A stretch of 64,000 bases of DNA from positions 27,705-91,704 of the forward strand of contig DAOTTS010000093.1 of NCBI GenBank assembly GCA_034437735.1, given 5' to 3'. A program made the translations under genes and the position numbers. The notes below the pieces were generated by a model. The model was not told the origin of the DNA, ran no database searches, and was given only the letters and a program-made list of their open reading frames with translations. The first letter of the stretch is position 1. Every line of letters starts with the position of its first letter. Source of the DNA: Anaerolineae bacterium (lineage in GTDB: Bacteria > Chloroflexota > Anaerolineae > B4-G1 > SLSP01). This document shows positions 30,869 to 59,854 of this stretch, one piece after another.

Positions 30869-31037
30869 CGCTCAAACAGCACAAAGCTATTATAGCGGAA
30901 TACGACCGGACGGCAATTTGGCACAACAAAAAACCCATGCTATGATCCGAGAAGGTCGGGGTCGAATAGGCCCATTTGATTTCCTTGCGTGTCTCAAAGC
31001 TGAGCCAGCTACTCTCTATGTTATGAAGGAGTTGCGT

Positions 31038-40800: not shown

Positions 40801-43800
40801 CCTTGTGCATCCTCGCTCTCCAACCTGACCACATAGTTCCCACTCCTCGGTGGGTTGAACACAGCAAGCGCATCACCATCAGCATCAGTCGTCAAAGTCG
40901 TTTCGGAGACAATCGAATCAATCGCTCGCCCAGGCGTGTTCTCACCATCATCAGATGCCCATGTTCTTCTGACTAACATCGCCGTGATTTCACGCTCCGG
41001 CAAAGGTTCGCCATCCCAATCGACAGCCCGAACCTCGATCTCAACACGTTCACGAGCGCGAACCATCCGTGCTTTCGGTCGAAGTCCAAGATACAGGTCA
41101 GCTTGATGAACAATCGCCTTACCAACAGCCGCAACGGGATCAGAAACGGGCAACTGAGACCTATCTGTCACTCGAACGTTCAAAGTCCACCTCTGGGACT
41201 CAACACTCTCGGAATCGCCCAAAGGGGTCAAGTCTGCCGGGAACTCCAAGAGGAGTCCCCCTGATTCATCAAGCGTACTTTTGCCTTGAGTAATCACCTT
41301 AGAAGACGCCCCAAAGGAATGACTATTCCACTGCCATCCCAGCTTGGACAATCGTTCAGACTCTCCCATGGCATAAGGAGCTGCCCTGAGCTCCCAATCA
41401 ACGGACCCATTTGAGAGACTCCCACCAGAGAAGTAGTCAGCCGCCACATGAAACTGCACGACCTCACCTTGACGGATATGCATAACATCAGGGAATACAT
41501 CCACTTGGAACGGCGACTTATGATATGCCTCAATGCTGACCCGCTTTGAGCCCCCGCCCATCCTCAAGGTTGCACGGTCACTGTTCTGTGAGTGAATCGA
41601 GGCATTGAGAACATATTCGCCTAATGCGATCATCTCTTCCAGATGGATCGAACCCGAGAAACTGCCAAACTCCGACAACGTAAGGGTTTCAGAATAGATC
41701 GGTCGCATATCGATAGTTTGCAGCGTTACGTCCACCTGAGTCTCTGCTCCCGGCACTTGATATGTACCTTCATACCCCTCACGCACCAACCCGTGGAAGT
41801 GCAACGTTTGCTCTGGTCGATAGAGCTCCCGATCCGTCTCCAGGAAAATACGAGAGGCTGGCGAGAGACCAGGGGCAAAATTGAGGCCGAACTCCCACGG
41901 AGAGGCCTCGCCAGACCAACCGGTCATTGCAATTCCGAAACCTGGTTCGCCGGCGGCCCCAATCACCGCGGCCACACGATTCCAGAGATTATCAACGGGG
42001 CTGATCGGGATTCTTGCCAAGCCTTCGTCATCCGTAGTTCCACCGGCAATGAGCAATCCTTGGTTGTCGATTAACCGCACCGCCGTACGCGTGATAGGCG
42101 ATCCGCTCTCCAAATCCGTGACCCAAACAACAGCCTCATCCCGCGTCAACTTAATGGAGATGTGACGATCGACAACGGCAATACCTAATCGACGAGGCCC
42201 GTAGTTTTGTCCCGGGATTTGCCACTCAAGCCCGTATAATCCAGTAGGAAGTGCACCACGCAATCTACGTAAGTACAGAGGAACGAGTTGACTCTGGTTG
42301 GGCGATAGATCGAAATCCTCAACCCATTCCCGCAATACGTCTCCCTCAGCGGAGGAATCCTGCCTGATAAACGTCGATTCGTCATATTGGCTGAGGACGA
42401 ACGAGATATCATCGGCATTCCTAGCCCCCAGATAAAGAACCGAGGGCTCGTCAGCGTTCATCGCCACCATGTCAGCAGCCATAGGCAGTTCTAAACGCAC
42501 AGGAAGATCTCCCGTGACGAAACATAAAGTTGTGGATTCTTCCAATGTATGCCCATAGATGTCGGAGACGCCGGATAAAACCTCAACACAATACTCTGTG
42601 CGAGGTTGGCGTTCCCATTGAAGGGTATATACGTTCGATATCTTATCGTAATATGTGTACAGACGCTCATCTTCAGGTTCGGGATCGATCTTTACATTAT
42701 CAGCCAGGGTCTTTTCATCGATGGCACCTGCAAAGTTGAGTTGGACAGGTCGGTTAAGTCCAACCAAAGTTTCGTTGTCATCCGGCGTATATCGAACGAG
42801 TTGGGGTTCGGAAACCGTATGAAAGGACCACATGCGCGGATTCTCCAAAGGCGCGCTGGTCCGCGCACGAGCTCGCGGACTCACCTGCACCGTGTAATCT
42901 GAATCCAGAACGAGCCTATCTGTCGGTGTGAATATCAACACAGCGCCATTATCACGCCAGCGAATCGTACCTGGGACAATGCGCTCGTCTTCGCTGACAA
43001 GATTGAATTCGCGTCCGGTGATTGCCTGATCCATAGGTGTGTTGAACGTAACACTAATGGCCGACGCCAAACGCACCTGTGCAAATCCAGACTCCGGAAA
43101 AACCGTCGTTATCCGGGGAGGAGCGGTTTCAAACGACCAATTAAAAGTTTCCTGAAGAACAGCCCCGCTTAGGCTTGCAACGCCTGAGGATAACGTAACG
43201 TTATAGCGCTCGCCGGCGCCCCACCCTGAGATGGGAGTGAAACGATAGAGCGAGGTATTCACCCACTCAGCTCGCCCCAGAACGGAAGGAGAGAACGTCA
43301 AGGGTAACTCAAGACACTCACCATCAGCTTGAACATACTCACCAACACAATGAATGGGAACAACGGGATGATTGAAAGCCAAGAGGATGTCTGTATCCCC
43401 GCGTAAATCAGAAGCACCATCTGGAGGATTGATTTGGGTAACGAGTAGCGGAGATACAGTGGAAAAAGCAAAGTTATACTCATCACCCATTTGAAGCCCA
43501 TCTTTTGATTGAGCAGCTGGGCCAAGCGACACTTGATAACGGGTTTGAGGATTCAAGCTCTCAGGATAAAATACCAATTCGGAGGTGTCGTCCCAGGCAA
43601 ACGCCCCCTCAACCTCTGGATAGAGGCTGAACGATTGGACGACACTCTCCTTATCCATAGGTTGATCAAAGACAAGCCGGATCTGGGTCGTCGTCGAGAC
43701 CACTTCACCTCGCCGAGGTTCAAAGTCTAGCACAAACGGGGGATACGGATCCGTGATTACAAAAGGCGTCGAAGTCGGAGGTAAGGTAGTTTCTGTCGGG

Positions 43801-43931
43801 GCAAGCGTCTCAGTCGCAGCCTCTGGCTGCGACGTTGCTCGAGTGGGTGATGTAGGTGTAGAAGTCTGACAGCCGGCCAAAATCACCACTAGGATGCAGA
43901 TGGCCAGTCCGATGAAACTGCGCTTATGCAT
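37881..43931 (-). CDS. Alpha-2-macroglobulin family lipoprotein (2,016 aa), thioester-less
   Basis: It has a lipoprotein signal (ILAGCQT). N-terminal SbsA-Ig-like repeats carry the P.V..F.P motif, followed by MG domains. An alpha/alpha-toroid TED region reads QNPDGGWGWW. At the thioester position GLLTQPSYGATDAV replaces the CGEQ thioester motif. Confidence 0.85.
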   Translation of the reverse strand: MHKRSFIGLAICILVVILAGCQTSTPTSPTRATSQPEAATETLAPTETTLPPTSTPFVITDPYPPFVLDFEPRRGEVVSTTTQIRLVFDQPMDKESVVQSFSLYPEVEGAFAWDDTSELVFYPESLNPQTRYQVSLGPAAQSKDGLQMGDEYNFAFSTVSPLLVTQINPPDGASDLRGDTDILLAFNHPVVPIHCVGEYVQADGECLELPLTFSPSVLGRAEWVNTSLYRFTPISGWGAGERYNVTLSSGVASLSGAVLQETFNWSFETAPPRITTVFPESGFAQVRLASAISVTFNTPMDQAITGREFNLVSEDERIVPGTIRWRDNGAVLIFTPTDRLVLDSDYTVQVSPRARARTSAPLENPRMWSFHTVSEPQLVRYTPDDNETLVGLNRPVQLNFAGAIDEKTLADNVKIDPEPEDERLYTYYDKISNVYTLQWERQPRTEYCVEVLSGVSDIYGHTLEESTTLCFVTGDLPVRLELPMAADMVAMNADEPSVLYLGARNADDISFVLSQYDESTFIRQDSSAEGDVLREWVEDFDLSPNQSQLVPLYLRRLRGALPTGLYGLEWQIPGQNYGPRRLGIAVVDRHISIKLTRDEAVVWVTDLESGSPITRTAVRLIDNQGLLIAGGTTDDEGLARIPISPVDNLWNRVAAVIGAAGEPGFGIAMTGWSGEASPWEFGLNFAPGLSPASRIFLETDRELYRPEQTLHFHGLVREGYEGTYQVPGAETQVDVTLQTIDMRPIYSETLTLSEFGSFSGSIHLEEMIALGEYVLNASIHSQNSDRATLRMGGGSKRVSIEAYHKSPFQVDVFPDVMHIRQGEVVQFHVAADYFSGGSLSNGSVDWELRAAPYAMGESERLSKLGWQWNSHSFGASSKVITQGKSTLDESGGLLLEFPADLTPLGDSESVESQRWTLNVRVTDRSQLPVSDPVAAVGKAIVHQADLYLGLRPKARMVRARERVEIEVRAVDWDGEPLPEREITAMLVRRTWASDDGENTPGRAIDSIVSETTLTTDADGDALAVFNPPRSGNYVVRLESEDAQGHDVAVETTLWVSGDDSFGWHPTSDVMALKPDAQVYDVGESAQILVPVPFTGTYQLLLTVERDSLLKVKRFVFDQPNPVIELPIEEAYAPNVYVSALAVRPATDEQGPDVRAGYVNVSVSPSQYLLDVSIEGDLDTYSPGEEARLTVRTSDHEGQPVDAEVSLSIVDKAILDLKRGPEAQTIVEAFYGEHPLSVSSGHTLLVLMNRWGEEIEASSGYAFSEGPAGLGGGDTVPTVPGIRQDFPDTAFWDSALRTGPDGQVEVSVKLPDSLTTWRVRATAATKETEIGVTEREIEVRQPLSVQPVVPEFLVVGDRTEIVAVVHNRTPSDFTALVTIEAQGVAVEGNLVQEVVVPAMGRMPVLWALNASQDSLPSATLSFSAEAGDYRDVMTLDDPIPIHRWDMPDVKGASGVLREAGERIEVFHVPMNATMSSALRLSVETSLTSGLIDQMEGLLTQPSYGATDAVTSWVLTSLATLQAVEMQDVSVQADVKEMEALVTEALECIQMRQNPDGGWGWWRDWSNLHMTSYVAMTLLRARSAGFPISDRVIDRSLDYIETMMTRALQTDSRYPHFALSIRVLSQADRPWPSGAATILYRDRQALGVAGRFHLALALGAVDPSDPRVAMLLGDLQSEARITATGAHWEDVDSQHWSTDIQVTALAVEALTVLSPDDPLLPQAVRWLMSARRLDRWPTVYETAWASTSLATYMAEYDSATGTFDFDVSLNGHSLLDDSSTREDRLGAGLTFDLPLGEELRHGINLLSLTRKSGSGGLFYASSLHLFQPIDEVSSQSRGMSINRQYCQMSRQEILGSETLHVPVATECLQTEKVAVGDIIEVRLTVVIPATRHYVRVRDLFPAGFVPIQYRESDVGFAIRSARAVNNGLLDQAEGVGVGGALDSGPVEWLDPFERREYHESQADFFARQLSPGTYQARYWMRAKFPGTYHSLPATVSELYFPEVWGGTEAVTIEVLPCE

Positions 43932-44176: not shown

Positions 44177-44869
44177 TTACCGCCTGCGGCGACGCATCCC
44201 GCCAAGAACCATCACATAGTACAACATCGTGGAAAGAGATTGCGCAAGAGCTGCAATGTAGGTAAGTGCAGCAGCGGATAACACCTTACGAGCTCCACGC
44301 ACCCCCTCAGATCCACTCACAATACCACTTTGTTTGAGAAGTGAAATCGCGCGCCGGCTGGCATCGAGTTCTACCGGCAGCGTCAGCAGAGAAAACACCA
44401 CAGCACCGGCGAAAAAGAAGACCCCGATAGTCGCAAGAGATTGGGAGCTGAGCATCATCCCTATGACAAAGAGAATCGGACCTAACCACGATGTAAAATT
44501 CACAACGGGGACTAGCCCGGACCGCAACCGAAGCAGTGCGAACGCTTGCGCATCTTGAACCGCGTGCCCAAACTCATGAGCTACAATCGCAACCGCCCCT
44601 ACGGATGAAGATCTGGCGACGTTGTTAGAGAGGCGCAAAACCTTCTTTCGGGGATCATAGTGATCGCTTAACTCGCCCTGCGTGCCCTCAATATGAAGCG
44701 AAAGCCCCGTGTGTTTCTGCAGCAACCGCGCCGCTTGCAGGCCATTAATCCCTGCATTGTTGGGTTTATCCAGATACTCACGATAGGTACTCCGCACTTT
44801 CCACTGCGCATAAAGCGCCAAGAGCAACGCCGGCAAACTGATCAGAAAATACGTCGGATTCCAAAACAT
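44177..44869 (-). CDS. Membrane zinc metallopeptidase, YugP-like (HExxH)
   Basis: It has an N-terminal TM helix, a zinc-binding motif HEFGHAVQD, and C-terminal TM helices. Confidence 0.7.
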   Translation of the reverse strand: MFWNPTYFLISLPALLLALYAQWKVRSTYREYLDKPNNAGINGLQAARLLQKHTGLSLHIEGTQGELSDHYDPRKKVLRLSNNVARSSSVGAVAIVAHEFGHAVQDAQAFALLRLRSGLVPVVNFTSWLGPILFVIGMMLSSQSLATIGVFFFAGAVVFSLLTLPVELDASRRAISLLKQSGIVSGSEGVRGARKVLSAAALTYIAALAQSLSTMLYYVMVLGGMRRRRR

Positions 44870-45161
44870 ACCGGCATCAACCTCCGAATCTTATTCAGGA
44901 AAGACTCACAACCAACGTTACAATCAATCGTACGGCCAATCCTCAGGTTTTATGCTACTCAATCGTATTCTACCCGACTTGACTTAGAATTCCATAAGAA
45001 ACCTGCACCACTGAATGCAGGAATGACAAACGGACTACCTTTCTGACCTCAAAGAGGAAAAGATAGTCCGCTTTTATAGGCGACCCACTACGGACCTTCA
45101 CAGCCTATGGGAGAACTACAATACGCCACTTAGCCTGACGTATCCGAGTTATGTCTCCTTC

Positions 45162-45917
45162 TCATTCAGAGTCCGATTGACGTTTCTCATAATCGATGAA
45201 TCGGTAGCCCATCCCCCGCTCAGTTAGGATGTACTGCGGATTTGACGTATCCGGTTCAATCTTTTTGCGTAGGTAGTTGATGTACAGGCGCAAATAGGAG
45301 ATTTCGTCCTTATACTCATACCCCCAGACCTTAGATAGGAGTGTGCTATGGGGAACGGTCCAACCGGCATTTTCAATGAGGTGACGTAACAGACGGAACT
45401 CGGTAGGTCTTAGTTTGATACGCTCGCCATCGACGATGACCTCAGCTGTGTTAAAATCTACACTAAGGTAATCGTCGATCTCCAGGACAGAGGTATCAGG
45501 CGGTGTCAAACTCTCAAACCGCCGAAGCACCGCTCTTACTCGGCTGACCAATTCGCGAGGACTAAACGGTTTCGTCACATAATCATCAGCACCGAGATCC
45601 AATCCTCGAACTTTGTCATCCTCAGAATCACGGACCGTGAGCATAATGATCGGCACGTTAGACGTTTCGCGAATCATCCGAAGCGTCTCGAAACCATCCA
45701 TCTCCGGCATCATCACGTCGAGCAGGACGAGGTCCGGCATCTTTTCGCGCACTTGATCGAGAGCTTCTAGACCGTTGTGAGCCTCAATGACCCGAAAATC
45801 CTCCATCTCCAGGTTGATACGGACGAACCGGATGATGCGCGGCTCATCATCCACAACAAGAATCAGGGGATGAAGGCCCGAGTCACTACTCACGGATGAA
45901 GGTAACGATCTGTTCAT
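45162..45917 (-). CDS. OmpR-family two-component response regulator
   Basis: The receiver reads LILVVDDEP...[11 protein letters not shown]...ITVRD. The winged-helix domain reads [12 protein letters not shown]...[12 protein letters not shown]...GYRF. Confidence 0.9.
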
Positions 45918-46128
45918 CTTCTTCTGTTGGCAGAATCTCTACGGAGTGAACACGGTTCCATGGATAAAGCACAACATTCGTTTCTGCTAAGAGATAGGTA
46001 ACCTCTCGCCCATCTCTCAATCGAGGACTTCTCAGTGCAATGTACTGAGCATTAGGATCAGGCAGTTCTTCAACGTCCCCTACAACTGCATCCTCGTTTT
46101 CAATGTGAACCAACAACGTATAGGGCAT
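45886..46128 (-). CDS. Small acidic hypothetical protein (80 aa)
   Basis: It has a strong RBS (AAAGGAG, 5-nt spacer). It lies between the FHA gene and the response-regulator gene and overlaps the regulator's start by 32 nt. Confidence 0.45.
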
Positions 46129-46196
46129 ATTAACTCCTTTGTGAACAAAAACCCATCAGGAATAACGATACTCAGCATTTTAAGGCAGCCGGGAGC

Positions 46197-46760
46197 TCAA
46201 TCCTCGTCACCAGGCGTATTCTTGTGAATGTGGACTTTGAGCTGCATAGTTCCAAATGTTAGTACATCTCCGTCACGAAATGCATAGGGAAGGTAAGGGG
46301 TCACCCGCTCCTCGTTCAGGAATGTTCCATTCGTGCTATCTAGGTCCTCCACGAAACAAGTGCCATCCCGAGTGTAAATACGGGCATGGCGTCTCGAGAC
46401 ACCTTGCTCTAGGCCGCCGTCCGTTGTCATATCAAGTTCCGGGAAAATCCCATGGGCTGCATCAAGTCGACCCACAAGGATTTCTCGATCTGCAGATAAA
46501 AGTATCTTCCGGCCCGTATTCAAAACATCAACCTCGATATTGATCGAACGGTTCTTCGCGTCTTCCCCTTCCCCATCCTGTCTCGGTCGAGCGGGTCGTT
46601 CATCCTCCTGATCGGGAAGAGGTTCGGTACGTAGAGGGCCACCCGAGGGCAGATAAGTTCCACACTGAACACAGAAAAGTGTACCGGGCAAATTATCAGC
46701 CCCGCACGATGGACACACTACCTTGCTATCCTTTTGAGTCATCGTTACCTCCCTTATCAA
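46197..46760 (-). CDS. Zinc-ribbon / FHA-domain protein
   Basis: The zinc ribbon reads CPSCGADN...CVQCG. The FHA region reads ILVGR...GVSRRHARIY...DLDSTNGTFLN. Its start overlaps the upstream stop as ATGA. Confidence 0.8.
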   Translation of the reverse strand: MIREVTMTQKDSKVVCPSCGADNLPGTLFCVQCGTYLPSGGPLRTEPLPDQEDERPARPRQDGEGEDAKNRSINIEVDVLNTGRKILLSADREILVGRLDAAHGIFPELDMTTDGGLEQGVSRRHARIYTRDGTCFVEDLDSTNGTFLNEERVTPYLPYAFRDGDVLTFGTMQLKVHIHKNTPGDED

Positions 46761-48220
46761 GACGAAGGAATGGAAAGGGCCCGTGTCCCATACCGAAGTT
46801 TTTTGCGCCCTTCAACTGTTGGCCCAGTACCCTGTGCGAGGCGTCCTACCTCCAGCATCGCAGCACGCCCCAATTCTCGATATCCCATATCAAACAAATG
46901 CGTTGCAGCAGATTCCAGATAACGCGTAGCCTGTTGCGGATCACCTGACTCAACAGACTGCCAGGCCTTCTCCTGAAGGCGGAAGACACTCAAACGGGCG
47001 ACCAGATTGAGCAGCCGAGGTGGAACCGATGTCTCCTCATGATTGTACGTGAAGTCAATGTGAACGTCCTGCTGCACACTAACGGTCTCTGAAGACTGGA
47101 CGTCCTTACCCGTAAGCTCCAATCTCATAATGCGCTTCGTGCCAATTTCATCATGATTCACAACCAATTCTAGAAGCAAGGTCAACGTATCCCGCCCAGA
47201 AACGTCCCCTATCTTGATAGACTGCCCCCTCTCAATAGGAAGAATCTCCATATGAGGAGAAACCCGAAAGGCGTTACGCAGCTCCACGTAAGGAACGACA
47301 CTAGCAAGCAGTTCCGTTTTGCGCAACACAAGATTAGTCAGTCCTTTAATCTCCGATTTCAGAGTTTCTCTTACCTTGGAAGGACTGTCGATGTAATAAG
47401 AGACACCGCCGCCGTAGCGCGCAACACTCTCGAGAAACAAATCATTCCAGTCTTCACCGATGCCAAAGGCTGAAATTCCTATACCATCATTGCCAGCCCG
47501 CCTTGCCGCTCGGAGCGCAAGCTCTTCATCACCATACGTACGCCCATCAGTAAACAGAATCACGTGATTAATCTTGTCATCAGCCCGGTGCCGTTGGACT
47601 TGTTTGATACCGAGAGACAGACCTTGATAGATCTCAGTGCCTCCGGCAGCAGTCATAGCTGCAATAGCCGATCGAAAACTATGCTGGTTACTAACGCTAT
47701 CGGAGGTCTTGATAACCTCAGCGCGATCACTGAAGGCAACCAAAGCTAAATGATCGTTTGGATGCAGAGAATCGACAAGTTCGTTCACTGCCATCTTAAC
47801 GTTATGCATCCGAGTCCCACGCATGGAGGTGCTACGATCAATGACCAATGCCAGATTCAAACGCTGGCGCGAATCGCGCAATTTCTCTTTCGGATGCACA
47901 TCCACCACCACGTAAAGCATCTGCCCATGCGACATCGGTTGGAGGGTCTCAGAGTTTAACAAGATCGATAAACTAATGGGAGCATCCTTATTCCGCCCCC
48001 GTTTGATCCGCTGTCGGTCATAAGCCCGGCGAAACGTTATGTCACCGAGCACTTCATAGGCCTCCTGAACCAAACGAAAGCGTGCAGCATCTCCGTGCGT
48101 TGCATCAGGATGATACTCGCGGGCTTTTTGACGGTAAGCCCTTTTAATCACATCTCGATCAGCATCCTCACTAACATCTAGAATACGATAGTAATCTCGA
48201 TTAGGATTAATCTCAACCAT
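46757..48220 (-). CDS. J-domain (DnaJ) / von Willebrand factor A domain protein
   Basis: The J domain reads DYYRILDV...AYRQKAREYHPD. The vWA MIDAS-like region reads LALVIDRSTSMRG...LVAFSD...ILFTDG. Confidence 0.8.
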   Translation of the reverse strand: MVEINPNRDYYRILDVSEDADRDVIKRAYRQKAREYHPDATHGDAARFRLVQEAYEVLGDITFRRAYDRQRIKRGRNKDAPISLSILLNSETLQPMSHGQMLYVVVDVHPKEKLRDSRQRLNLALVIDRSTSMRGTRMHNVKMAVNELVDSLHPNDHLALVAFSDRAEVIKTSDSVSNQHSFRSAIAAMTAAGGTEIYQGLSLGIKQVQRHRADDKINHVILFTDGRTYGDEELALRAARRAGNDGIGISAFGIGEDWNDLFLESVARYGGGVSYYIDSPSKVRETLKSEIKGLTNLVLRKTELLASVVPYVELRNAFRVSPHMEILPIERGQSIKIGDVSGRDTLTLLLELVVNHDEIGTKRIMRLELTGKDVQSSETVSVQQDVHIDFTYNHEETSVPPRLLNLVARLSVFRLQEKAWQSVESGDPQQATRYLESAATHLFDMGYRELGRAAMLEVGRLAQGTGPTVEGRKKLRYGTRALSIPSS

Positions 48221-48242
48221 AATAGGTTAGGCTTTCGAGAAT

Positions 48243-49232
48243 CTACAAATCAGACAAATTCACTTGTGTATAAATCACAGTCACATTGTCGTTGCCGCCG
48301 GCTTCATTGGCAGCTTCGACAAGCCGCAGACATGCTTCTTGGGGATCCTGCGGATCAGAAAGTATGCGCCAGATCGATGACTCCTCCATCATATTCCATA
48401 ATCCATCGCTGCACAATAACAACCGATCCCCATCTTGAAGCGCATTAGTCGTAACATCCACCTCAAGCCCATCGGTTTGACCGATAGCCCGGTAGAGCAC
48501 ATTTCTTTGCGGATGAACGAGTGCTTCTTCTTTAGAGATCTGTCCCATCTCAATAAGTCGATTTACAAAAGAGTGATCGCGGGTTAAGCGCTCAGGTGAT
48601 GACCCATTCCGCAGTAAATAGGCTCGACTGTCCCCTACGTGCCCGATAAATAGCCGACTACCAAGAACCAATCCATAGGTCAGAGTGCTCCCACTACCCG
48701 GCAACTCACGAGCAACAGCCCGGTTAGCCCGCGAAACAGCATCTCTAACCACATCAGTAAGCGAGGGTTGATCCGCCCCCCGTTCCGAGCCCAACAGCAT
48801 CGGCAAGTATATGGTCGAAATCAAATGACTGGCAGAGATCCTAAGCGCTAACGAGCTGGCCATCTCCCCCTTCTGATGCCCTCCCATACCATCCGCAACC
48901 ATGAAAAGGCCAAAAGGAGGAAGGGGTTGACCACTATCATTAGCATCATGCTGACCCGTAAAGACTAACAAAGCGTCCTCATTTTGCCCGCGGACACTCC
49001 CTACGTCGGTCAACCATCCTGATTGAAAGACCTGAGTATGCCGGAAACTCACCTGATTCGTCGATGCATGGCCGACATTCGCGGCTTCTTCTGCCTTATT
49101 GTCTTGGGGGGACGGCTCTGGTCCTACCTCAAGTTTCGACACCGGGTCTTGGGATAATGCTTCCGCCTCTTTGGCAGACGCCTCTTGATTCTTTCCGAAA
49201 AAACCACTCACCCATTCACGAATCGATGCCAT
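48243..49232 (-). CDS. PP2C-family Ser/Thr protein phosphatase
   Basis: It has the motifs GQNEDALLV, FMVADGMGGHQKGEMAS and LCSDGLW, and ends in GGNDNVTV. Confidence 0.85.
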   Translation of the reverse strand: MASIREWVSGFFGKNQEASAKEAEALSQDPVSKLEVGPEPSPQDNKAEEAANVGHASTNQVSFRHTQVFQSGWLTDVGSVRGQNEDALLVFTGQHDANDSGQPLPPFGLFMVADGMGGHQKGEMASSLALRISASHLISTIYLPMLLGSERGADQPSLTDVVRDAVSRANRAVARELPGSGSTLTYGLVLGSRLFIGHVGDSRAYLLRNGSSPERLTRDHSFVNRLIEMGQISKEEALVHPQRNVLYRAIGQTDGLEVDVTTNALQDGDRLLLCSDGLWNMMEESSIWRILSDPQDPQEACLRLVEAANEAGGNDNVTVIYTQVNLSDL

Positions 49233-49298
49233 TCATCACCTCGAACTCTAAAAAATAGCGACTCAATAACTCCGGCAAAGTCAAGCTGAACGTCAGCC

Positions 49299-51434
49299 CT
49301 AAGCTGGAATTGCGTAGACATTCCGGTCACTCGAACCAAAATAAACGACACCATCGGCGATCTTAGGCTGACCGGTTATTGGGCCATCGGTCTGATAGCG
49401 CCAACGCAGCGACCCATTGCGCGCATCAAAGCAGTAAAGCGCCCCATCAACCCCACCAACATAAACAGCGCCCTCATAAACCGTTGGAGTCCCGGTCACC
49501 TGGCCATCGGTCTCATACCGCCATACCACCCGTCCTTCGCTCTTATCCAGAGCGTAGATATTTTTATCCGCCGAACCAAAAAAGACGAGGTCCTCCCATA
49601 CAACTGCGGTTGAGGCAATGCCGCCACCCGTGCGGTATTTCCAAGCTGACCATCCTGAACGAACATCTAGTGCGTAGAAAGACCAATCAAGTGAACCGAC
49701 AAAAACGAGGCCGTCGCTGATAATAGGCGCAGCAAGAATACCGCGACGGGAGCGAAATCGCCATCGCATTTTACGATCCAACCCAAGAGCATATACCATC
49801 CCCATCTCACAACTAAAGAGGATCAAATTATCATTGACGAAAGGTTGAGACCGGATCTTGCCATCCGATGTATAATCCCAAGCTTTGCGCCCCGAATGCT
49901 GATGTATCGCATAGAGATTACGGTCATCGGAGCCAATGAAGAAGTGCCCCAGATCTGGATACGCAGAGGAGTAAACCCGCCCTTTCGTTGGCATCGTCCA
50001 TAACAGGCGCCCACTCTGGAGATCCACAGAATAAACCACATGATCTGTGGAGCCAAATACAACCATCCCATCCAGCACACAAGGCGAAGACGCAATCCCA
50101 CCCTCAGTAGGATACTTCCAGATGAAATCACCATTTTCGATATCAAGCGCATATACATTATGATCGTAGGAAGGCACGAGTAGAATATCATCGTGGAGTT
50201 GAACCGCACCGCGAACCTCATCCTCACAGGCAAACTGCCAAATCGCTTTCAGCACGCCCGTACCACCAAAAGCTTGCGTTTCGCCTTGGCTCCCTGTTCG
50301 CCCCAAACCTTTTGCCGACGAAACAGAAAGCAACGCTCTCCTAAATTCCTCTGTTGACCCCCATCGCTTGTTAATATCATATTCGAGAGCTTTCTCGATA
50401 ACATCAACCAGCTCTTTTGAGACTGTTGGGTTTGTCTTGTGAATGGGGCGTTCTGCAAAAGAAAACGGAGGCTCTAACCGAGGGTCCTGTTTGCTCAAAA
50501 TATGATGAAGGGTCGCCCCCAGGGCATAAAGATCCCCCCTGGGCTCAGCGATGCCACGGTACTGTTCGGGAGGCGAGTATCCCTCTGTGCCAATAGTTGT
50601 ACCTTTCTCACCGCTTTGAAAGAGCTTCGCAATCCCAAAGTCAACCAATCGAATGCGGTCTTGATCGTCAAGCATAATATTCGAAGGCTTCAGGTCACGA
50701 AAGATAATGGGCCTGGGTTTGTGGTTGTGAAGATACGACAAAACGTCACAAAGTTGCACAGCCCATTCAATGACCTGAGACTCAGGGAAGTAGCCCTCAG
50801 CCTCAGCAATCTTCACCTCTAGATCCTCGCCTGGCACAAACTCAATAACCAGATAACTCCTAGTCCCTTCCGTGAAAAAGTCGTAGACCTGTGGGATAGC
50901 AGGATGACTAAGCGTGGCGAGAATACTGGCTTCACGTTCGAAGTTACGAACGATCATTTGCCGGACCTGAGGATCAGACGCAGTATTGATCATCTCTTTA
51001 ACCGCACAAATCCGATTGACGCCGGGAAACCGTAAATCGCGAGCACGGTAAACCGCCCCCATGCCGCCGATCCCCACGACCCCCAAGATCTCATATCGAT
51101 CCTGCAATCTGGTTCCTGTAGGAAGCAGGCCTTCCTCAGGAGGATCGGCCTCGGCAGCAACACTGCTAGGCGAAACCTTTCGGGTCTTAATCTCCTCATC
51201 TTTTGATGTCGGTTTAGACGCTTCTGGGAATTCCACCACACGGGTCACCGACTCATTGTCCCCTTCCGCATCTGGTTCCGTGCTTTTCTCGTCAACTTGG
51301 GTATTGAGGTCCTGGGTATTGGACTCCAAGGAAAGGGGAATGTTCAAACGCTGTGACAACCCCCGCTTGCGTTTATCATCTCGCTTCTGAGAAAGATTTA
51401 TCGTGCTTTGGCTTAATTCATCCTCTGTTGACAT
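49299..51434 (-). CDS. Ser/Thr protein kinase with C-terminal PQQ-like beta-propeller repeats
   Basis: The kinase region reads GIGGMGAVYRARD, AVKEM and FRDLKPSNIML, with DFG and PPE motifs. Then come at least 7 repeats of the form VY.LD...G...W. Confidence 0.85.
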   Translation of the reverse strand: MSTEDELSQSTINLSQKRDDKRKRGLSQRLNIPLSLESNTQDLNTQVDEKSTEPDAEGDNESVTRVVEFPEASKPTSKDEEIKTRKVSPSSVAAEADPPEEGLLPTGTRLQDRYEILGVVGIGGMGAVYRARDLRFPGVNRICAVKEMINTASDPQVRQMIVRNFEREASILATLSHPAIPQVYDFFTEGTRSYLVIEFVPGEDLEVKIAEAEGYFPESQVIEWAVQLCDVLSYLHNHKPRPIIFRDLKPSNIMLDDQDRIRLVDFGIAKLFQSGEKGTTIGTEGYSPPEQYRGIAEPRGDLYALGATLHHILSKQDPRLEPPFSFAERPIHKTNPTVSKELVDVIEKALEYDINKRWGSTEEFRRALLSVSSAKGLGRTGSQGETQAFGGTGVLKAIWQFACEDEVRGAVQLHDDILLVPSYDHNVYALDIENGDFIWKYPTEGGIASSPCVLDGMVVFGSTDHVVYSVDLQSGRLLWTMPTKGRVYSSAYPDLGHFFIGSDDRNLYAIHQHSGRKAWDYTSDGKIRSQPFVNDNLILFSCEMGMVYALGLDRKMRWRFRSRRGILAAPIISDGLVFVGSLDWSFYALDVRSGWSAWKYRTGGGIASTAVVWEDLVFFGSADKNIYALDKSEGRVVWRYETDGQVTGTPTVYEGAVYVGGVDGALYCFDARNGSLRWRYQTDGPITGQPKIADGVVYFGSSDRNVYAIPA

Positions 51435-51824
51435 GACCCACCCTTGGCACTCTAGAGACTAAAGTGATTATAAAACAACCTGAAAGAAAAGGCAAACATA
51501 AAAAATGAGTGGTGGTACTCACCACTCAATATAATTCCACAAGAAAAAGGATACTCAAGATCCAGACGTAAACAACTAAACTTTTCCAGGACATCTATGG
51601 AAACCCAGAATCTTTTTAGCTACTCATGACCAGATCTGTAATACCCTATAGCAAAATCGATCAACAACCGTCCTCTTACCTTGTCACAGAATCTAGCCCA
51701 TTGTGAAACTGAAGGTTGTGATTGATCAAACATATGATATCCTACATAGAGCAAAATACCAACTCAATCAAAACAGAGACTCTCAATGGGTTAGGAGAGT
51801 TCACAGAAAGAAAGGGCAGGTGAA

Positions 51825-53564
51825 ATGCCAGTTATCCCCTCAGCGATACCCATGGAGATGGAGCTAGAATGCGGAAGTTGCGGACACCGCCAGCCTTTCG
51901 TGCTTCCCACTCCTGCGTGCGAACAGTGCGGACACGATTGGATGGAGGTTAAGTATAGTCCAGATAGGATCCAGGAGCTATGGCCAGATCTCCTTCAAAC
52001 GCGCCCGTTTACAATGTGGCGGTATCGTGAACTTCTACCGCTCCGAAACGAAGAGTACCAGATATCAATGGGAGAGGGAGGAACGCCCCTCCTCCACGCT
52101 AATAACCTGGGCATGATGCTTGGAGCACCTAGCATCTATATCAAGGATGAAAGACAAAACCCCACGAACTCTTTCAAAGATCGCCAGGCGTCTCTGGTTA
52201 TTTCGTTAATGAAAGAAGCCGCAGTCAAAGAGCTAGTCGTTGCCTCAACGGGCAATGTGGCCATCTCCTACTCAGCTTACTCCTCTTACGCAGGCATTAA
52301 ACTTTGGACGTTTATTCCGAGCCTCGTTCCCCCTGAGAAGATGCGAGAGATTGCCATCTATGGCAGTGAGGTCATCAAGGTTACCGACACCTATGACGCT
52401 ACCAAAAAGGTAGCAGCAGAATTTGCCGAACACAAGGGCATTCCGGCCGATCGCGGGATCCGCGATGTCGGAACTCGAGAGAGCATGAAGACGATCGGCT
52501 TTGAAATTGCCGAGCAACTTGGGCTAGAGCTGGGACCCTCAGAAAATGGAGCCCCATGGCGTGCACCGGACTGGTATATTCAAGCCGTGAGCGGTGGTAT
52601 GGGACCGGTAGGGTTCTGGAAAGGGTATACCGAGCTCTACGAAATTGGGCTCGTCGATCGCTTGCCGAAGTTGGCACTGGTTCAGGCTGAAGGGTGTGCG
52701 CCGATGGTCAATTCTTATCAGCTTGGATTATCTAAGGCTGAACCGGTATCCGATCCTGACACTCGGGTCATTACGATTGCAACGGGTTATCCGGGCCCAG
52801 CTTATGAATACCTCCAGTCTGTCGTCAGCCAGCATGGTGGCGCTTTTGTAGCAGCTTCTGACGAAGAGATCTTCCGCGCATTGCATCTCGTCGCAAAAAT
52901 GGAGGGACTATCAGTTGAACCGGCCGCGGCAACTGCATTCGCAGGACTGTTTAAACTTCTCAATCAAAACATCATTAAGAAGGATGAAACAGTGGTCGTC
53001 AATTGCTCGGGCCATACATTCCCAGTCGAGAAATTTCTCCTCGACGATGACTGGGTCAAGGTAGTTTCAACGCGCACAAACCGCAAGTCTACAAGCTCAG
53101 AGCCTACGGTACCGGCGAAATCCAAGGTCGGTCGCACCCCCACTGAGGGACTGCTGGGTGCGCTGGACCAGCTCGACGCACGCGTCAAGTGCGTCGCTAT
53201 CATTGAGGATAACCCCGACGCCACCCGACTATTGAGACGAATCTTGCAGACGCGAGGGAACTATCGTATTATCGAGGCGTACGATGGGCGAGAAGGTCTT
53301 GAGTTAATCCGCTCAGAGCAGCCAGATCTGGTATTACTGGATCTTATGATGCCTGATATCGACGGATTTGAGGTTATCGAAAAGCTGAAAAAAGACCGCC
53401 AATTTGAGGATCTGCCGATTATTGTAATCACTGCCAAGCAACTATCTCGACAGGAAAAAGAACGCCTCCAAGGGCAGATCAAGATGCTGCTCGAAAAGGG
53501 TTCGTTCATGGATGATGACCTACTTTCGGGAATTAAGGGACTCCTAGGATCTGAGGCCGGCTAA
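51825..53564 (+). CDS. Threonine-synthase-like PLP-dependent enzyme (fold type II) with N-terminal zinc ribbon, fused to a C-terminal CheY-like receiver domain
   Basis: The zinc ribbon is CGSCGH...CEQCGH. The PLP-lysine motif is NSFKDRQAS and a glycine-rich loop reads VSGGMGPVG. The REC domain spans roughly residues 455-575 (IIEDNPD...LLDLMMPDIDG...IVITAK). Confidence 0.8.
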   Translation: MPVIPSAIPMEMELECGSCGHRQPFVLPTPACEQCGHDWMEVKYSPDRIQELWPDLLQTRPFTMWRYRELLPLRNEEYQISMGEGGTPLLHANNLGMMLGAPSIYIKDERQNPTNSFKDRQASLVISLMKEAAVKELVVASTGNVAISYSAYSSYAGIKLWTFIPSLVPPEKMREIAIYGSEVIKVTDTYDATKKVAAEFAEHKGIPADRGIRDVGTRESMKTIGFEIAEQLGLELGPSENGAPWRAPDWYIQAVSGGMGPVGFWKGYTELYEIGLVDRLPKLALVQAEGCAPMVNSYQLGLSKAEPVSDPDTRVITIATGYPGPAYEYLQSVVSQHGGAFVAASDEEIFRALHLVAKMEGLSVEPAAATAFAGLFKLLNQNIIKKDETVVVNCSGHTFPVEKFLLDDDWVKVVSTRTNRKSTSSEPTVPAKSKVGRTPTEGLLGALDQLDARVKCVAIIEDNPDATRLLRRILQTRGNYRIIEAYDGREGLELIRSEQPDLVLLDLMMPDIDGFEVIEKLKKDRQFEDLPIIVITAKQLSRQEKERLQGQIKMLLEKGSFMDDDLLSGIKGLLGSEAG

Positions 53565-53588: not shown

Positions 53589-54860
53589 ATGACCACTATT
53601 CTTTACGTTGAGGATGATGTCTCAAGTCAGAGATTGGTTGAACGTATCTTAAGAGTCGAAGGTTTCGACGTCCGACTGGCGGACGATGGGATCAGTGCCA
53701 TAGAGATCGCTCAACAGGATACACCCGATCTTATCTTGATGGACATCAATATGAGTGGGTTGGATGGATATGAAGTCACCACTCGCTTGAGAACCGTTCC
53801 CGGTTTAGAGAAGACGCCCATCATCGCCGTCACTGCAGCAACGCTGCGGGGAGACCGGGAACGAGCCATCGTTGCCGGATGTACGGGGTATATTGCCAAG
53901 CCTATCGACGTGGATACCTTTGCCGATCAGGTGCGAAGTTACCTGGTCGGTTTGCAAGAACAGGTTGACTCCCCGGAGGAACGCGCTCAGTACCTTCTGG
54001 AGTACAATCAACGGCTCGTGAACCGACTGGAGGAAAAGGTTCGTGAACTTCAGAACGCAAATGCCGAGCTTCAGCGCGTTGAAAAGATGAAGTCTGACTT
54101 CGTCGTACTCGCCGGGCACGAGTTGCGCACTCCTCTGACCGTGATCTACGGTTATCTCCAGATTTTAATGGCGAATCCCAATATACCTGGCGAGGCGGAG
54201 GTGGAAGGTACGCCGACCAACCTGCTAATGAGAGTGGCAAAAGGCGTAGAGCGACTCAGTGATATGATTCAAGACATCCTCAATGTCTCCCTGATCGATG
54301 CCGATCGGCTGGAACTCTCTCAAGAACCGGTTTTTCTGAAATCGATTGTGCAGTCTGTACTGAATAACCTGCAAAACTTCGGCCCGTCCCGCGATCTCGT
54401 GTTCGATTTAGGACCGGGCCTCAAAGATATTCCCGTGATTCAAGGGGACCCGCGCCGACTGCACCAGGCCATAGGTAACATCATCGGAAACGCCATCAAA
54501 TATACCCCCAATGGGGGGACAGTACGTATCAACGCCGAGAATTTAGACGATGTCGTTCATCTCTGGGTTAAGGATTCAGGGGTCGGCATCCCGAAAGATG
54601 AGTTACCGCACATATTCGATAGATTTTACGTGCTAGAGGACACCTCCTTTCACAGCTCGAGCAAGACGGCTTTCAAAGGTGGGGGGTTGGGATTGGGACT
54701 AACGGTCTCCCAGGGCATTATTGAAGCCCACGATGGCAGGGTTTGGGCAGAAAGCCCTGGGCAGGATGAGGCTGAGCTTCCAGGAAGCACTTTCCACATC
54801 TTGTTACCCATTGGAAACCCTTTTGATCTCATGGAGGAAAAGGCTAAAAACCGAACCTGA
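53589..54860 (+). CDS. Hybrid sensor kinase: N-terminal receiver domain + HisKA + HATPase_c
   Basis: The REC domain reads ILYVEDD...ILMDINMSGLDG...VTAA. A coiled coil follows. The H-box reads LAGHELRTPL and the N and G boxes read GNAIKYT...DSGVGIP...GGGLGLGL. Confidence 0.85.
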   Translation: MTTILYVEDDVSSQRLVERILRVEGFDVRLADDGISAIEIAQQDTPDLILMDINMSGLDGYEVTTRLRTVPGLEKTPIIAVTAATLRGDRERAIVAGCTGYIAKPIDVDTFADQVRSYLVGLQEQVDSPEERAQYLLEYNQRLVNRLEEKVRELQNANAELQRVEKMKSDFVVLAGHELRTPLTVIYGYLQILMANPNIPGEAEVEGTPTNLLMRVAKGVERLSDMIQDILNVSLIDADRLELSQEPVFLKSIVQSVLNNLQNFGPSRDLVFDLGPGLKDIPVIQGDPRRLHQAIGNIIGNAIKYTPNGGTVRINAENLDDVVHLWVKDSGVGIPKDELPHIFDRFYVLEDTSFHSSSKTAFKGGGLGLGLTVSQGIIEAHDGRVWAESPGQDEAELPGSTFHILLPIGNPFDLMEEKAKNRT

Positions 54861-54941: not shown

Positions 54942-55015
54942 GGTGGATGTGGCCCAACGGTTAGGGCACCTGTCTGTGGAACAGGAGACTGTGGGTTCGA
55001 ATCCCATCATCCACC
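54942..55015 (+). tRNA. tRNA-His (anticodon GTG)
   Basis: The cloverleaf has G-1 plus the acceptor GTGGATG/CATCCAC and the D-stem GCCC/GGGC. The anticodon stem is CCTGT/ACAGG with loop CTGTGGA, and the T-arm is GTGGG-TTCGAAT-CCCAT. The discriminator is C. Confidence 0.9.
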
Positions 55016-55060
55016 CCTAAACAGGCTGGGCTTATCGGGTCCAGCCGTTTTAATCGATGT

Positions 55061-55134
55061 GCCCCCGTAGCTCAATCGGATAGAGTGGCTGGCTTCGAAC
55101 CAGTTGGTTGCGCGTTCAAGTCGCGCCGGGGGCT
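55061..55134 (+). tRNA. tRNA-Arg (anticodon TCG)
   Basis: The acceptor is GCCCCCG/CGGGGGC and the D-arm is GCTC-AATCGGATA-GAGT. The anticodon stem is GCTGG/CCAGT with loop CTTCGAA, and the T-arm is GCGCG-TTCAAGT-CGCGC. Confidence 0.85.
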
Positions 55135-55144
55135 CAAACGGAAG

Positions 55145-58744: not shown

Positions 58745-59854
58745 CTACACAAGCTGTTTGATAGTCTGTTTTAGTTGAGATTGAAAGCGATTGAAGTCGA
58801 ACCGTTCGGCATTGGACCGACAGACGTCTGGAGAGACAGCATCAGGATCGAATCCTTTCACGGCTTCCATCAGGGATTCAGAAGTTGGCTCGTCAAAAAA
58901 AGCTCCGGTCACCCCTTCAACAACCGTATCAAGTGCCCCACCGGCCCGATAGGCAATCACCGGGCGACCAGCAGCCTGAGCCTCAACAGGTGCTAATCCA
59001 AAATCCTCCCGTCCCGGAAAGATAAAGGCTCGACAGCGAGCAACGAGGGAAGGCAGATCCGCATCGGGTACCCACCCTAGAAAGGATACGTTCGCTCCTG
59101 CATCAGCCTCCAAGGCCTCTCGGTCGCGACCGTCTCCCACAATCTTAAGAGGCAGCCCTAACTGGGTAAAGGCGTGGACGGCAAGATCAATTCGCTTGTA
59201 AGGGACGAGCCGGGATACAATGAGATAGTAGTCGTCGTGCTCGTCAACCGCATAGAACCGACCAACATCCACCGGCGGGAAGATGACCTCCGCATCACGT
59301 GCATAATAACGCCGAATCCTACGCTGGATCTCGGTGGAGATAGCGACATAATGGGTCGTCGGCCTTTGTGCAACCTCATAGTCCCAACGGCGAAGACGAC
59401 GAATAATAGGTTTAAGCAGAAGCTTCACGCTGGCCGGTAGATGTTCACGGGCCGCATATTGTTCGTATTCCCAAACATAACGCGTAGGAGCTAAACAATA
59501 GCATAGATGAGGAATACCGCCCGTCTGAACACCGTGACAAAATCCACTCTTGTTACTCAAAATCAGATCGTATCCAGACCCACTCAGATCTAATCGGTTG
59601 AAAGCGAACGCGTAAAGCGGGAAAAACGCCTGGTGGAAACGATAGACACCGGGAAGATGGTCCATCCACGTCGTACGGATGTCCCATGTTCGATAGGCAT
59701 CAGGCATCCGACTCCGCCAATACATACTGGTATAGATAGGGGCACGGGAATAAACTTGAACCAAACGCTCAAGCACCCGCTCCGCCCCGCCGTATTGATT
59801 CAGCCAATCATGGACCAGGGCAACAGAAAGCTCTGAAGAAGTCATAGGGATCAA
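58745..59854 (-). CDS. Glycosyltransferase family 4 (GT-B, group 1)
   Basis: It reads ALVHDWLNQYGGAERVLE...EDFGLAPVEAQAAGRPVIA...GGALDTV. Its start overlaps the murE stop by 4 nt. Confidence 0.8.
   Translation of the reverse strand: MIPMTSSELSVALVHDWLNQYGGAERVLERLVQVYSRAPIYTSMYWRSRMPDAYRTWDIRTTWMDHLPGVYRFHQAFFPLYAFAFNRLDLSGSGYDLILSNKSGFCHGVQTGGIPHLCYCLAPTRYVWEYEQYAAREHLPASVKLLLKPIIRRLRRWDYEVAQRPTTHYVAISTEIQRRIRRYYARDAEVIFPPVDVGRFYAVDEHDDYYLIVSRLVPYKRIDLAVHAFTQLGLPLKIVGDGRDREALEADAGANVSFLGWVPDADLPSLVARCRAFIFPGREDFGLAPVEAQAAGRPVIAYRAGGALDTVVEGVTGAFFDEPTSESLMEAVKGFDPDAVSPDVCRSNAERFDFNRFQSQLKQTIKQLV

Follow-up and report, generated by a model that had tools for sequence, protein, structure and literature searches.

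What does a bacterium control with a set of serine/threonine (Ser/Thr) signalling genes that ends in the gene of a DNA-binding response regulator? The question is raised by a gene cluster of an Anaerolineae bacterium (Chloroflexota; assembly GCA_034437735.1, contig DAOTTS010000093.1), which was analyzed within a window of 64,000 nucleotides (nt; positions 27,705 to 91,704 of the forward strand of the contig). According to the list of open reading frames (ORFs) and their translations, the cluster comprises six ORFs on the minus strand at window positions 45162-51434, with the coordinates given in an initial annotation of this DNA: 49299-51434 (711 amino acids, aa), 48243-49232 (329 aa), 46757-48220 (487 aa), 46197-46760 (187 aa), 45886-46128 (80 aa) and 45162-45917 (251 aa). 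Searches against Pfam and NCBIfam bore out the domain assignments of that annotation. In this order, the products are a protein kinase with a PQQ/BamB-like propeller (Pkinase), a PP2C phosphatase, a J-domain protein with a vWA domain (DnaJ and VWA, hereafter J-vWA), a zinc-ribbon FHA protein (Zn_Ribbon_1 and FHA), a small acidic protein (hereafter s80) and an OmpR-type regulator (Response_reg and Trans_reg_C). Our preference, held with slightly better than even confidence, is that the six genes constitute a cytoplasmic threonine-phosphorylation switch with a transcriptional output, by which Hsp70 is coupled to transcription.

The initial annotation missed the closest homologues of two of these proteins. 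J-vWA and the zinc-ribbon FHA protein are the bacterial counterparts of archaeal ArnB and ArnA, respectively. The top sequence matches of the FHA protein in the PDB are ArnA chains (8s05_C, 1.1e-7; 5a8i_A, 1.7e-7), and a family profile of J-vWA hits ArnB with an E-value of 6.8e-18, the match reaching past the vWA domain. ArnA and ArnB form the archaellum-repression module of Sulfolobus acidocaldarius, together with the Hanks kinases ArnC and ArnD and the phosphatase PP2A (PMC6509490, PMC12852372). ArnB is composed of a beta-sandwich interrupted by the vWA domain, followed by a regulatory helix bundle whose threonines are phosphorylated by ArnC. The zinc finger of ArnA binds constitutively to ArnB's beta-sandwich and C-terminal domain, while its FHA domain binds the phosphorylated bundle, which switches the complex from a loose to a tight state (PMC6509490; PMC12852372).

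The order of secondary structure elements in J-vWA (487 aa, 46757..48220, minus strand) agrees with this published three-part topology of a split beta-sandwich, a vWA domain and a helix bundle. Residues 9-68 form the J domain (48017..48196, minus strand; Pfam DnaJ, 7.2e-19), the beta-sandwich covers residues 82-110 and 297-390 and is interrupted by the vWA domain (~120-295), and a four-helix bundle occupies residues 401-480. An AlphaFold2 model (pLDDT 90.8) shows the same succession, i.e. a three-helix J domain, two beta strands, the vWA domain, the remainder of the beta-sandwich and the bundle with helices at 401-424, 428-445, 448-462 and 469-480. In an alignment of 35 homologues (45-78% identity), the HPD motif of the J domain (H37 P38 D39) and the vWA domain's metal ion-dependent adhesion site, or MIDAS (D128-x-S130-x-S132, T195 and D225), are invariant; in 75 sequences, both are conserved to at least 95%. 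Thus, the fusion of the two domains noticed in the initial annotation is a conserved one with both motifs intact, and neither of the two motif losses that would have refuted that annotation is seen. The presence of an HPD-containing J domain along with the lack of a G/F region and of the DnaJ zinc-finger and C-terminal domains fits class C (type III) J-domain proteins. The bundle and the tail (46781..47020, minus strand), the latter with the conserved sequence GRKKLRYGTRxL, contain three conserved threonines. T479 is invariant and T432 and T440 are conserved to at least 90% in the 35 sequences, while T440 and T479 reach at least 95% in the larger set. By analogy with ArnB, T432, T440 and T479 are candidate phospho-acceptor and FHA-docking sites.

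For the FHA gene, the start codon had to be corrected. An ATGA overlap of the J-vWA stop and the FHA start had been reported, but bases 46760-46757 read TTGA. The start is the ATG at 46742, which lies five bases after AAGGGAGGT containing a GGGAGG ribosome-binding site and 14 nt beyond the J-vWA stop codon. The resulting protein of 181 aa (46197..46742, minus strand; Pfam FHA 1.8e-16, Zn_Ribbon_1 1e-6) begins with a zinc ribbon (CxxC...CxxC), continues with an acidic linker containing a conserved threonine (Thr39) and ends in a C-terminal FHA domain, in which the residues for phosphothreonine binding (GR, SR+HA and NG) are conserved. Among stand-alone FHA proteins whose genes adjoin a J-vWA gene, 84 of 84 (78 from the genome scan and six others) possess the ribbon, and it is missing from both FHA proteins of loci without J-vWA, an observation that is supportive but, with n=2 only, not conclusive.

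The kinase gene (49299..51434, minus strand) encodes a protein of 711 aa matching Pkinase (1.9e-41), Beta-prop_ACSF4 (3.2e-64) and PQQ_2 (8.9e-45). A poorly conserved N-terminal region (~1-105) is followed by a Hanks kinase domain (114-362) and a PQQ/BamB-type beta-propeller (~397-710). Judged by its catalytic motifs AVK, RDLKPSN, DFG and GTEGYSPPE, which are kept across 63 orthologues, the kinase looks active. The propeller had been assumed to be of the extracytoplasmic type. However, none of the six operon proteins shows the hydrophobicity of a membrane helix, the maximum Kyte-Doolittle value being 1.49 over any 19-residue window, and therefore the whole system, including the propeller of the kinase, is considered to be cytoplasmic. 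The phosphatase (329 aa, 48243..49232, minus strand; Pfam PP2C 1.2e-15) has a variable N-terminal extension and retains the metal-binding motifs ADGMGGH, VGDSRAY, C+DGLW and GG.DN. Its NCBIfam score for Stp1/IreP is 221 bits (cutoff 230).

The fifth gene (45886..46128, minus strand) had been treated as filler. It is a real gene, preceded by an AAAGGAG ribosome-binding site, and its acidic product of 80 aa (pI 4.4) is even better conserved than J-vWA. Homologues, nearly all of them exactly 80 aa long, show 63-98% identity between genomes whose J-vWA proteins share 47-57%, and the median identities across relatives are 64% for s80 and 49% for J-vWA. It did not match any family of Pfam and NCBIfam and represents a new, as yet unnamed family. 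A HMMER scan of 1.84 billion representative sequences yielded only 194 relatives (clusters at 50% identity). They are mostly stand-alone proteins of ~80 aa, almost always 79-82 aa, and the family appears to be confined to this operon context. Invariant residues are H8, D13, P23, L37-R38-D39-G40, P56, F77 and R79; distant members share the signature [NS]PRxRDGK, and the C-terminus reads F-x-R-[ED]. Apparent fusions of the s80 domain in a Cna_B protein (2722 aa) and a C1q protein (674 aa) were discarded because the matches look compositional. Two metagenome gene calls with short joins of a propeller end and an s80-like part (P0347 and P0374) were not used as evidence either, as they may be artefacts of frameshift or read-through; alternatively, they could be true fusions or result from kinase and s80 genes lying side by side in distant lineages.

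The fold of s80 is putatively an Sm-like beta-barrel. The Sm/LSm/Hfq fold is a strongly bent barrel of five strands, and its classic representatives assemble into rings and bind RNA; the pI of s80 argues against RNA binding. Due to the absence of conserved serine or threonine residues it is also unlikely to be a phosphothreonine ligand. That its gene is always placed after FHA and before the regulator, and overlaps the regulator start, suggests a stoichiometric adaptor. It is conceivable that the invariant exposed Arg-Asp-Gly of s80 offers a carboxylate to the MIDAS metal, but we give this idea little weight because the motif is kept just as well in the absence of a vWA protein.

Are the six genes expressed as a unit? 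A sigma-70-type promoter (TTGCCT-17 nt-TATAAT, 51467..51495, minus strand) matching the consensus at ten of twelve positions is located ~32 nt upstream of the start codon of the kinase gene, and the equivalent site has a -35 of the TTTGC type together with a TATAAT -10 at ~36 of the 50 orthologous loci compared. Proceeding from the kinase to the regulator gene, the gaps measure 66, 22, 14 and 68 nt, while the last two genes overlap by 32 nt (8 nt if the regulator starts at an alternative GTG at 45893). No promoter-like match was found in the internal gaps. The sole intergenic minus-strand terminator-like site inside or just downstream of the cluster is a hairpin with an 8-bp stem followed by a T-rich run (45002..45021), 141 nt past the regulator stop, and this is likely the end of the operon. 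The conserved promoter, the position of this hairpin and the lack of internal promoter-like matches make it likely that the six genes are co-transcribed as one operon, as had been proposed. Another strong terminator-like hairpin (51506-51528, minus strand; 9-bp stem, then TTTTTT) lies directly upstream of the -35 element in the divergent intergenic region. There is no minus-strand gene upstream of it, and its role may be that of an insulator or of a terminator acting in both directions.

The operon is not peculiar to this genome. More than 120 full-length homologues of J-vWA were found, each with DnaJ and VWA domains and a length of ~487 aa, and all those with a named source belong to the Anaerolineae/Chloroflexi. 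In a scan of one genome per species, relatives of J-vWA occurred in at least 582 genomes; the best 80 of these are all Chloroflexota, including Thermoflexales and Ardenticatenia. Gene order was determined by tblastn with the window proteins in Chloroflexota genomes, one per species, that offered sufficient flanking sequence. In the downstream direction, FHA, s80 and the regulator follow in this order at 66 of 70 loci with room, even where J-vWA identity is as low as 36%. Upstream, where there was room at 61 loci, the kinase gene was present at all of them and the PP2C gene at 51, being missing at the remaining ten, which form one subclade. All six genes in order were found at 44 of 55 loci with room on both sides, and seven further loci lacked PP2C only, a degree of conservation far in excess of chance. 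Across genomes, the identities of the five partner proteins correlate with that of J-vWA (Spearman 0.66-0.89), which is indicative of vertical co-inheritance. Together these sequence comparisons indicate that the operon is vertically inherited throughout the Anaerolineae.

Some loci deviate from this arrangement. Five loci were reached via distant s80 homologues (33-45% identity); four of them contain all six genes and the fifth, at a contig end, five, and their flanks (GlnA, EPSP synthase, RelA/SpoT, thioredoxin) are unrelated. A complete Anaerolineales genome (L086) possesses the kinase, PP2C, FHA, s80 and regulator genes without J-vWA, and another locus (L084) contains FHA and s80 alone. 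Two Anaerolineales metagenome-assembled genomes (L071 and L072) encode a 414-aa protein that unites a kinase and an FHA domain (L071, 8043-9287). The fusion gene is separated from the J-vWA gene by a phosphoribosyltransferase gene, and s80 and regulator genes are not nearby. As the pair of FHA and s80 persists where J-vWA, the kinase or the regulator is missing, it may be the oldest core of the system. J-vWA is an operon part in a very large subclade.

These data bear on the possibility that two independent modules merely adjoin each other, a kinase/PP2C/J-vWA/FHA switch with a target of its own, and s80 with the regulator under the control of a separate histidine kinase. The 68-nt gap between FHA and s80 would be compatible with such a division, as would the long-range synteny of the region (Tat genes, alpha-2-macroglobulin, a 429-aa NTPase), which demonstrates that gene order is kept well beyond operons. 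A histidine kinase is also at hand. The regulator (251 aa, 45162..45917, minus strand; Pfam Response_reg 6.8e-34, Trans_reg_C 1.6e-23) has conserved acceptor-site residues (DD, D67, T95 and K117), and since it retains the canonical Asp acceptor, histidine kinase input is to be expected. In the clade of the window, a gene pair diverges from the operon that codes for a PLP-dependent enzyme fused to a C-terminal receiver domain (PALP-REC, 51825-53564, plus strand) and for a soluble hybrid histidine kinase of 423 aa (REC-HisKA-HATPase, REC-HK, 53589..54860, plus strand; identified by Pfam). The latter is a candidate phosphodonor of the regulator. This link is weak, though, because the pair accompanies the operon only in the clade with a J-vWA identity of at least 44% and is not near the operon in more distant genomes, where the histidine kinase is thus unlinked. 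Furthermore, neither a promoter-like nor a terminator-like site was found in the FHA-s80 gap, s80 trails the FHA gene even with wholly different flanks or in the absence of J-vWA, kinase or regulator (L084, L086), and the order FHA-s80-regulator is kept in 66 of the 70 genomes mentioned above. We therefore regard two separate modules as improbable.

Downstream of the regulator, the gene content of the relatives points in a particular direction. At 46 of 47 loci the regulator is succeeded by a same-strand gene for a Ras/Roc/Arf-like GTPase of 172 aa, which starts at a distance of 2-170 nt, often overlapping the regulator gene or lying within 60 nt of it; this GTPase is the seventh operon member in most lineages. 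Examples are the loci L003 (11103-11621), L042, L028 and L057. An Hsp20 gene was found on the same strand 115-1750 nt past the regulator at 23 loci (e.g. L087, 8086-8520), which is a raw count without a background rate, and a thioredoxin gene follows the operon in L087, L088 and L090. In the window itself, the operon terminator is followed by a gene for a PF04298 Zn-metallopeptidase with membrane helices and a pI of 10.5 (44177-44869, minus strand), a homologue of which succeeds the operon at ~35 related loci. A tblastn search of the window revealed no GTPase or Hsp20 remnant in the 292-nt gap after the regulator. The invariant HPD motif and the Hsp20, thioredoxin and Zn-metallopeptidase neighbours point to stress or proteostasis, and the downstream Hsp20 and thioredoxin genes may be a hint at the regulon.

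On the other hand, the same regulator could belong to a housekeeping controller of growth, envelope or cell division. In that case, the kinase, PP2C and FHA protein would be the equivalents of actinobacterial PknB/PstP/FhaA-FhaB or of PrkC/PrpC in Firmicutes, the regulator would be the WalR/MtrA/RpaB-type master regulator of the lineage, modulated by threonine phosphorylation, and J-vWA would merely serve as an assembly scaffold without a link to proteostasis. Indeed, the regulator is the most conserved protein of the cluster (61-95% identity) and has its best NCBIfam matches with RpaB (231, cutoff 330), YycF/WalR (214, cutoff 340) and MtrA (214, cutoff 300), the phosphatase comes close to the Stp1/IreP cutoff, and the top NCBIfam match of the FHA protein is FhaB/FipA. 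The operon is moreover single-copy and vertically inherited, it has a consensus housekeeping promoter, and a Mur ligase gene is located in the window at 59851-61428. However, all these equivalog scores remain under their cutoffs, the kinase contains neither PASTA nor membrane domains, and at no locus are cell-wall or division genes inside the operon. A housekeeping role would also leave unexplained the invariant HPD motif, which implies, as far as can be told from sequence, real recruitment of Hsp70, as well as the downstream Hsp20 and thioredoxin genes. Such a controller is thus conceivable but rather unlikely.

The initial annotation had considered a conflict system of the 'ternary' kind. 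In an anti-phage system of the TerY-P or 'ternary' type, an infection would be perceived by the vWA/kinase/phosphatase module, which would then set off a response. This is suggested by the combination of vWA, PP2C and Ser/Thr kinase, which is the domain content of the TerY-P triad, since TerY-P-like modules can be stand-alone defence (PMC11090510). Moreover, the kinase domain matches the PD-T4-6 and mad6 kinase models, and 7 kb away a 429-aa P-loop protein with weak IetA-like matches is encoded. The kinase matches, however, reflect generic Hanks-domain similarity. PADLOC gave generic kinase and PP2C similarity only, so that membership in a defence system was rejected, and J-vWA, FHA and s80 match none of its models. 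The operon contains no effector, MoxR, kinase-zinc ribbon or kinase-OB fusion; nearly all of the Anaerolineae genomes sampled carry it with an unchanged gene order and with correlated divergence, which is the opposite of patchy mobile defence islands, and it is flanked by housekeeping genes (GlnA, EPSP synthase, RelA, Tat, tRNAs). In view of the vertical inheritance across the class, the housekeeping neighbours and the lack of defence-model matches, a conflict role is very improbable. The label itself was not apt either, because 'ternary' in Kaur et al. (2020) designates MoxR-vWA-VMAP systems (PMC7159879) and the operon and its immediate flanks are devoid of an AAA+/MoxR gene.

Returning to the phosphorylation switch coupled to Hsp70, a sequence of events can be envisaged. 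The cytoplasmic propeller of the kinase would sense an intracellular cue, upon which the kinase would phosphorylate J-vWA at the bundle and tail residues T432, T440 and T479, and perhaps also the FHA protein at Thr39, a modification that PP2C would reverse. The zinc ribbon would keep the FHA protein on the vWA protein, as in ArnA/ArnB, and the FHA domain would clamp the phosphorylated bundle, so that the complex toggles between a loose and a tight form. The fusion of kinase and FHA domains beside a J-vWA gene in L071 and L072 supports such a functional connection. Depending on the state of the complex, the J domain may recruit the housekeeping DnaK (Hsp70), which could remodel a client at the MIDAS face or itself be titrated, whereby the switch would be tied to the chaperone load. 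The presumed adaptor s80, which would be made in a fixed ratio with the regulator and whose gene always adjoins the FHA gene, might then connect the switch to the regulator. The latter would alter transcription; plausible targets are genes of stress or proteostasis, e.g. those for Hsp20, thioredoxin and the Zn-peptidase located downstream in relatives.

Several points weigh against this proposal. Each of its steps is drawn by analogy, and the analogy is silent on the route to the output, since how ArnA/ArnB act downstream has not been established either (PMC12852372). Residues 300-487 of J-vWA gave no Pfam match to ArnB_C (InterPro IPR040929) at E-values up to 0.01, only DnaJ and VWA-type models being detected in the protein. 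A partner of s80 can be named only tentatively, as this protein has no conserved serine or threonine and is also present where J-vWA is missing, and the regulator with its canonical Asp acceptor may simply be driven by a histidine kinase, e.g. the divergent REC-HK. The promoter of the operon has a constitutive appearance, and a k-mer search of 50 kinase-upstream regions recovered the promoter without convincing direct repeats that might be regulator boxes. No DnaK gene is linked to the operon, the lineage of the window lacks the Hsp20 and GTPase genes, and the Hsp20 adjacency is a count without a background rate.

If the switch operates in this way, it would be of interest in several respects. 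ArnA/ArnB is the best-studied FHA/vWA phospho-switch, and its route to gene expression is missing; the operon supplies concrete candidates for the missing steps. In the bacterial version, kinase, phosphatase, transcription factor and a chaperone-recruiting domain are all encoded in one operon, which further contributes a new protein family, s80. A J domain on a phospho-regulated vWA scaffold would be an unusual coupling of Hsp70 and signalling. The operon is probably a major regulatory system of the Anaerolineae; sediments, digesters and hot springs harbour these bacteria in abundance, and genetic work on them is difficult. A still wider claim, which we regard as doubtful, is that of a class-wide bacterial pathway in which an ArnA/ArnB-type switch wired to Hsp70 by the J domain signals via the Sm-fold adaptor s80 (and the Ras-like GTPase in most lineages) to an OmpR-type factor acting as the master stress/proteostasis regulator of the Anaerolineae. 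Were it true, this pathway would expose the downstream logic of ArnA/ArnB-type and Sec23/24-like modules.

Other parts of the window contain further genes of interest. A second Ser/Thr kinase of 326 aa, consisting of the kinase domain only (5826-6806, minus strand), is divergently oriented to a gene for a 234-aa fusion of an FHA domain and an OmpR-type winged-helix DNA-binding domain (6924-7628, plus strand), i.e. a minimal EmbR-like regulator without a receiver. The connection from kinase via FHA to OmpR-type DNA binding is thus a recurring theme in this genome. A bacterial alpha-2-macroglobulin of 2016 aa with Big_5 repeats and a lipoprotein-like N-terminus is encoded at 37881-43931 (minus strand), followed by the 429-aa P-loop protein (36522-37811, minus strand; weak AAA, nSTAND3 and IetA-like matches); both genes are syntenic downstream of the operon in many relatives. 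An Rfam scan of the whole window detected two tRNAs and no other RNA element. These are tRNA-His (GTG) and tRNA-Arg (TCG) at 54943-55017 and 55061-55135 (plus strand), just past the REC-HK gene. Two large genes code for a 1396-aa protein with DUF11, PLD-like and lamin-tail domains (30717-34907, plus strand) and a 1672-aa protein with DUF2298 and PMT_2 membrane glycosyltransferase-like domains (22701-27719, minus strand).

How does the operon relate to known systems? That it is an undescribed variant, as had been suggested, is in line with our searches. A description of the arrangement was not found in the searched open-access literature, nor was the J-vWA fusion mentioned in the searched open-access full texts or in a survey of J-domain proteins (PMC10410713). 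The nearest theme of Kaur et al. links a kinase, PP2C and a stand-alone vWA protein to GAP1-N2 GTPases in actinobacteria (PMC7159879), but its GAP1, FNIII and ZnR-GTPase components are absent from the operon. The TerY-P triad consists of a TerY-like vWA protein, PP2C and a Ser/Thr kinase that bears a fused zinc ribbon, according to the summary of Anantharaman et al. (2012) in PMC11090510. Common to both is a vWA protein with a complete MIDAS that is co-encoded with PP2C and a Hanks kinase, as well as a proposed phosphorylation-dependent switch. Although the three enzyme classes are thus present, membership was rejected, because the kinase of the Anaerolineae ends in a PQQ propeller and not in a zinc ribbon or OB fold, and because the vWA protein matches no PADLOC model. 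Its vWA domain is of the ArnB/YfbK and not the TerY type, a vWA-TerF-like match occurring in one homologue only. The Anaerolineae operon also adds the FHA protein, the J domain, s80 and the regulator, and is not associated with tellurite-resistance, restriction or defence genes.

The DRA0331-DRA0334 operon of Deinococcus radiodurans encodes a vWA protein, a Ser/Thr kinase, an FHA protein and an FHA-PP2C, and experiments revealed push-pull control by the FHA protein and PP2C (bioRxiv 10.64898/2026.01.23.701218). The same four functional parts are united there in one bacterial operon, a comparison which refers to the parts and not to vWA homology. By contrast, the Deinococcus operon lacks a J domain, s80 and a response regulator, its phosphatase has an FHA domain of its own, and the kinase architecture is unlike. 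The kinase of the Anaerolineae rather resembles AfsK, the cytoplasmic Ser/Thr kinases of Streptomyces, in which a Hanks domain is likewise followed by a PQQ/BamB-type beta-propeller without a membrane segment. It is not an AfsK orthologue, since its NCBIfam AfsK score is 226 (cutoff 1300), and the operon context is not alike. A functional analogy, without homology, exists to chaperone titration of transcription, in which sigma-32 with DnaK/DnaJ and HspR with DnaK let the free chaperone level feed back on expression. Here, too, the Hsp70 system may be brought to a complex controlling transcription, and the Hsp20 genes near the operon in relatives would fit a stress regulon. What differs is that the J domain resides inside a phospho-regulated scaffold and that the factor is a two-component response regulator.

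The greatest similarity is to ArnA/ArnB. In both cases adjacent genes encode a zinc finger and FHA protein and a partner with a vWA-split beta-sandwich, a MIDAS that is intact and, at the C-terminus, a four-helix bundle with many conserved threonines, and a Hanks kinase and a Ser/Thr phosphatase are the controllers, a role that is proposed for the co-encoded Anaerolineae enzymes. There are, however, clear differences. The Anaerolineae system is bacterial (Chloroflexota) and has no archaellum, its phosphatase is a PP2C instead of the archaeal PP2A, and kinase and phosphatase are encoded within the same operon. Its ArnB-like protein carries an N-terminal J domain, the ArnB_C domain being undetected by Pfam, and the operon adds the putatively Sm-like 80-aa protein and the OmpR-type regulator, joined in the majority of relatives by the Ras-like GTPase. 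A combination of vWA protein, FHA protein, PP2C and kinase is of a kind already known from ArnA/ArnB with ArnC/ArnD, TerY-P and Deinococcus DRA0331-0334. The new elements are the J domain on a scaffold of the ArnB type, the s80 family and an output through a regulator of its own, accompanied by the GTPase in relatives.

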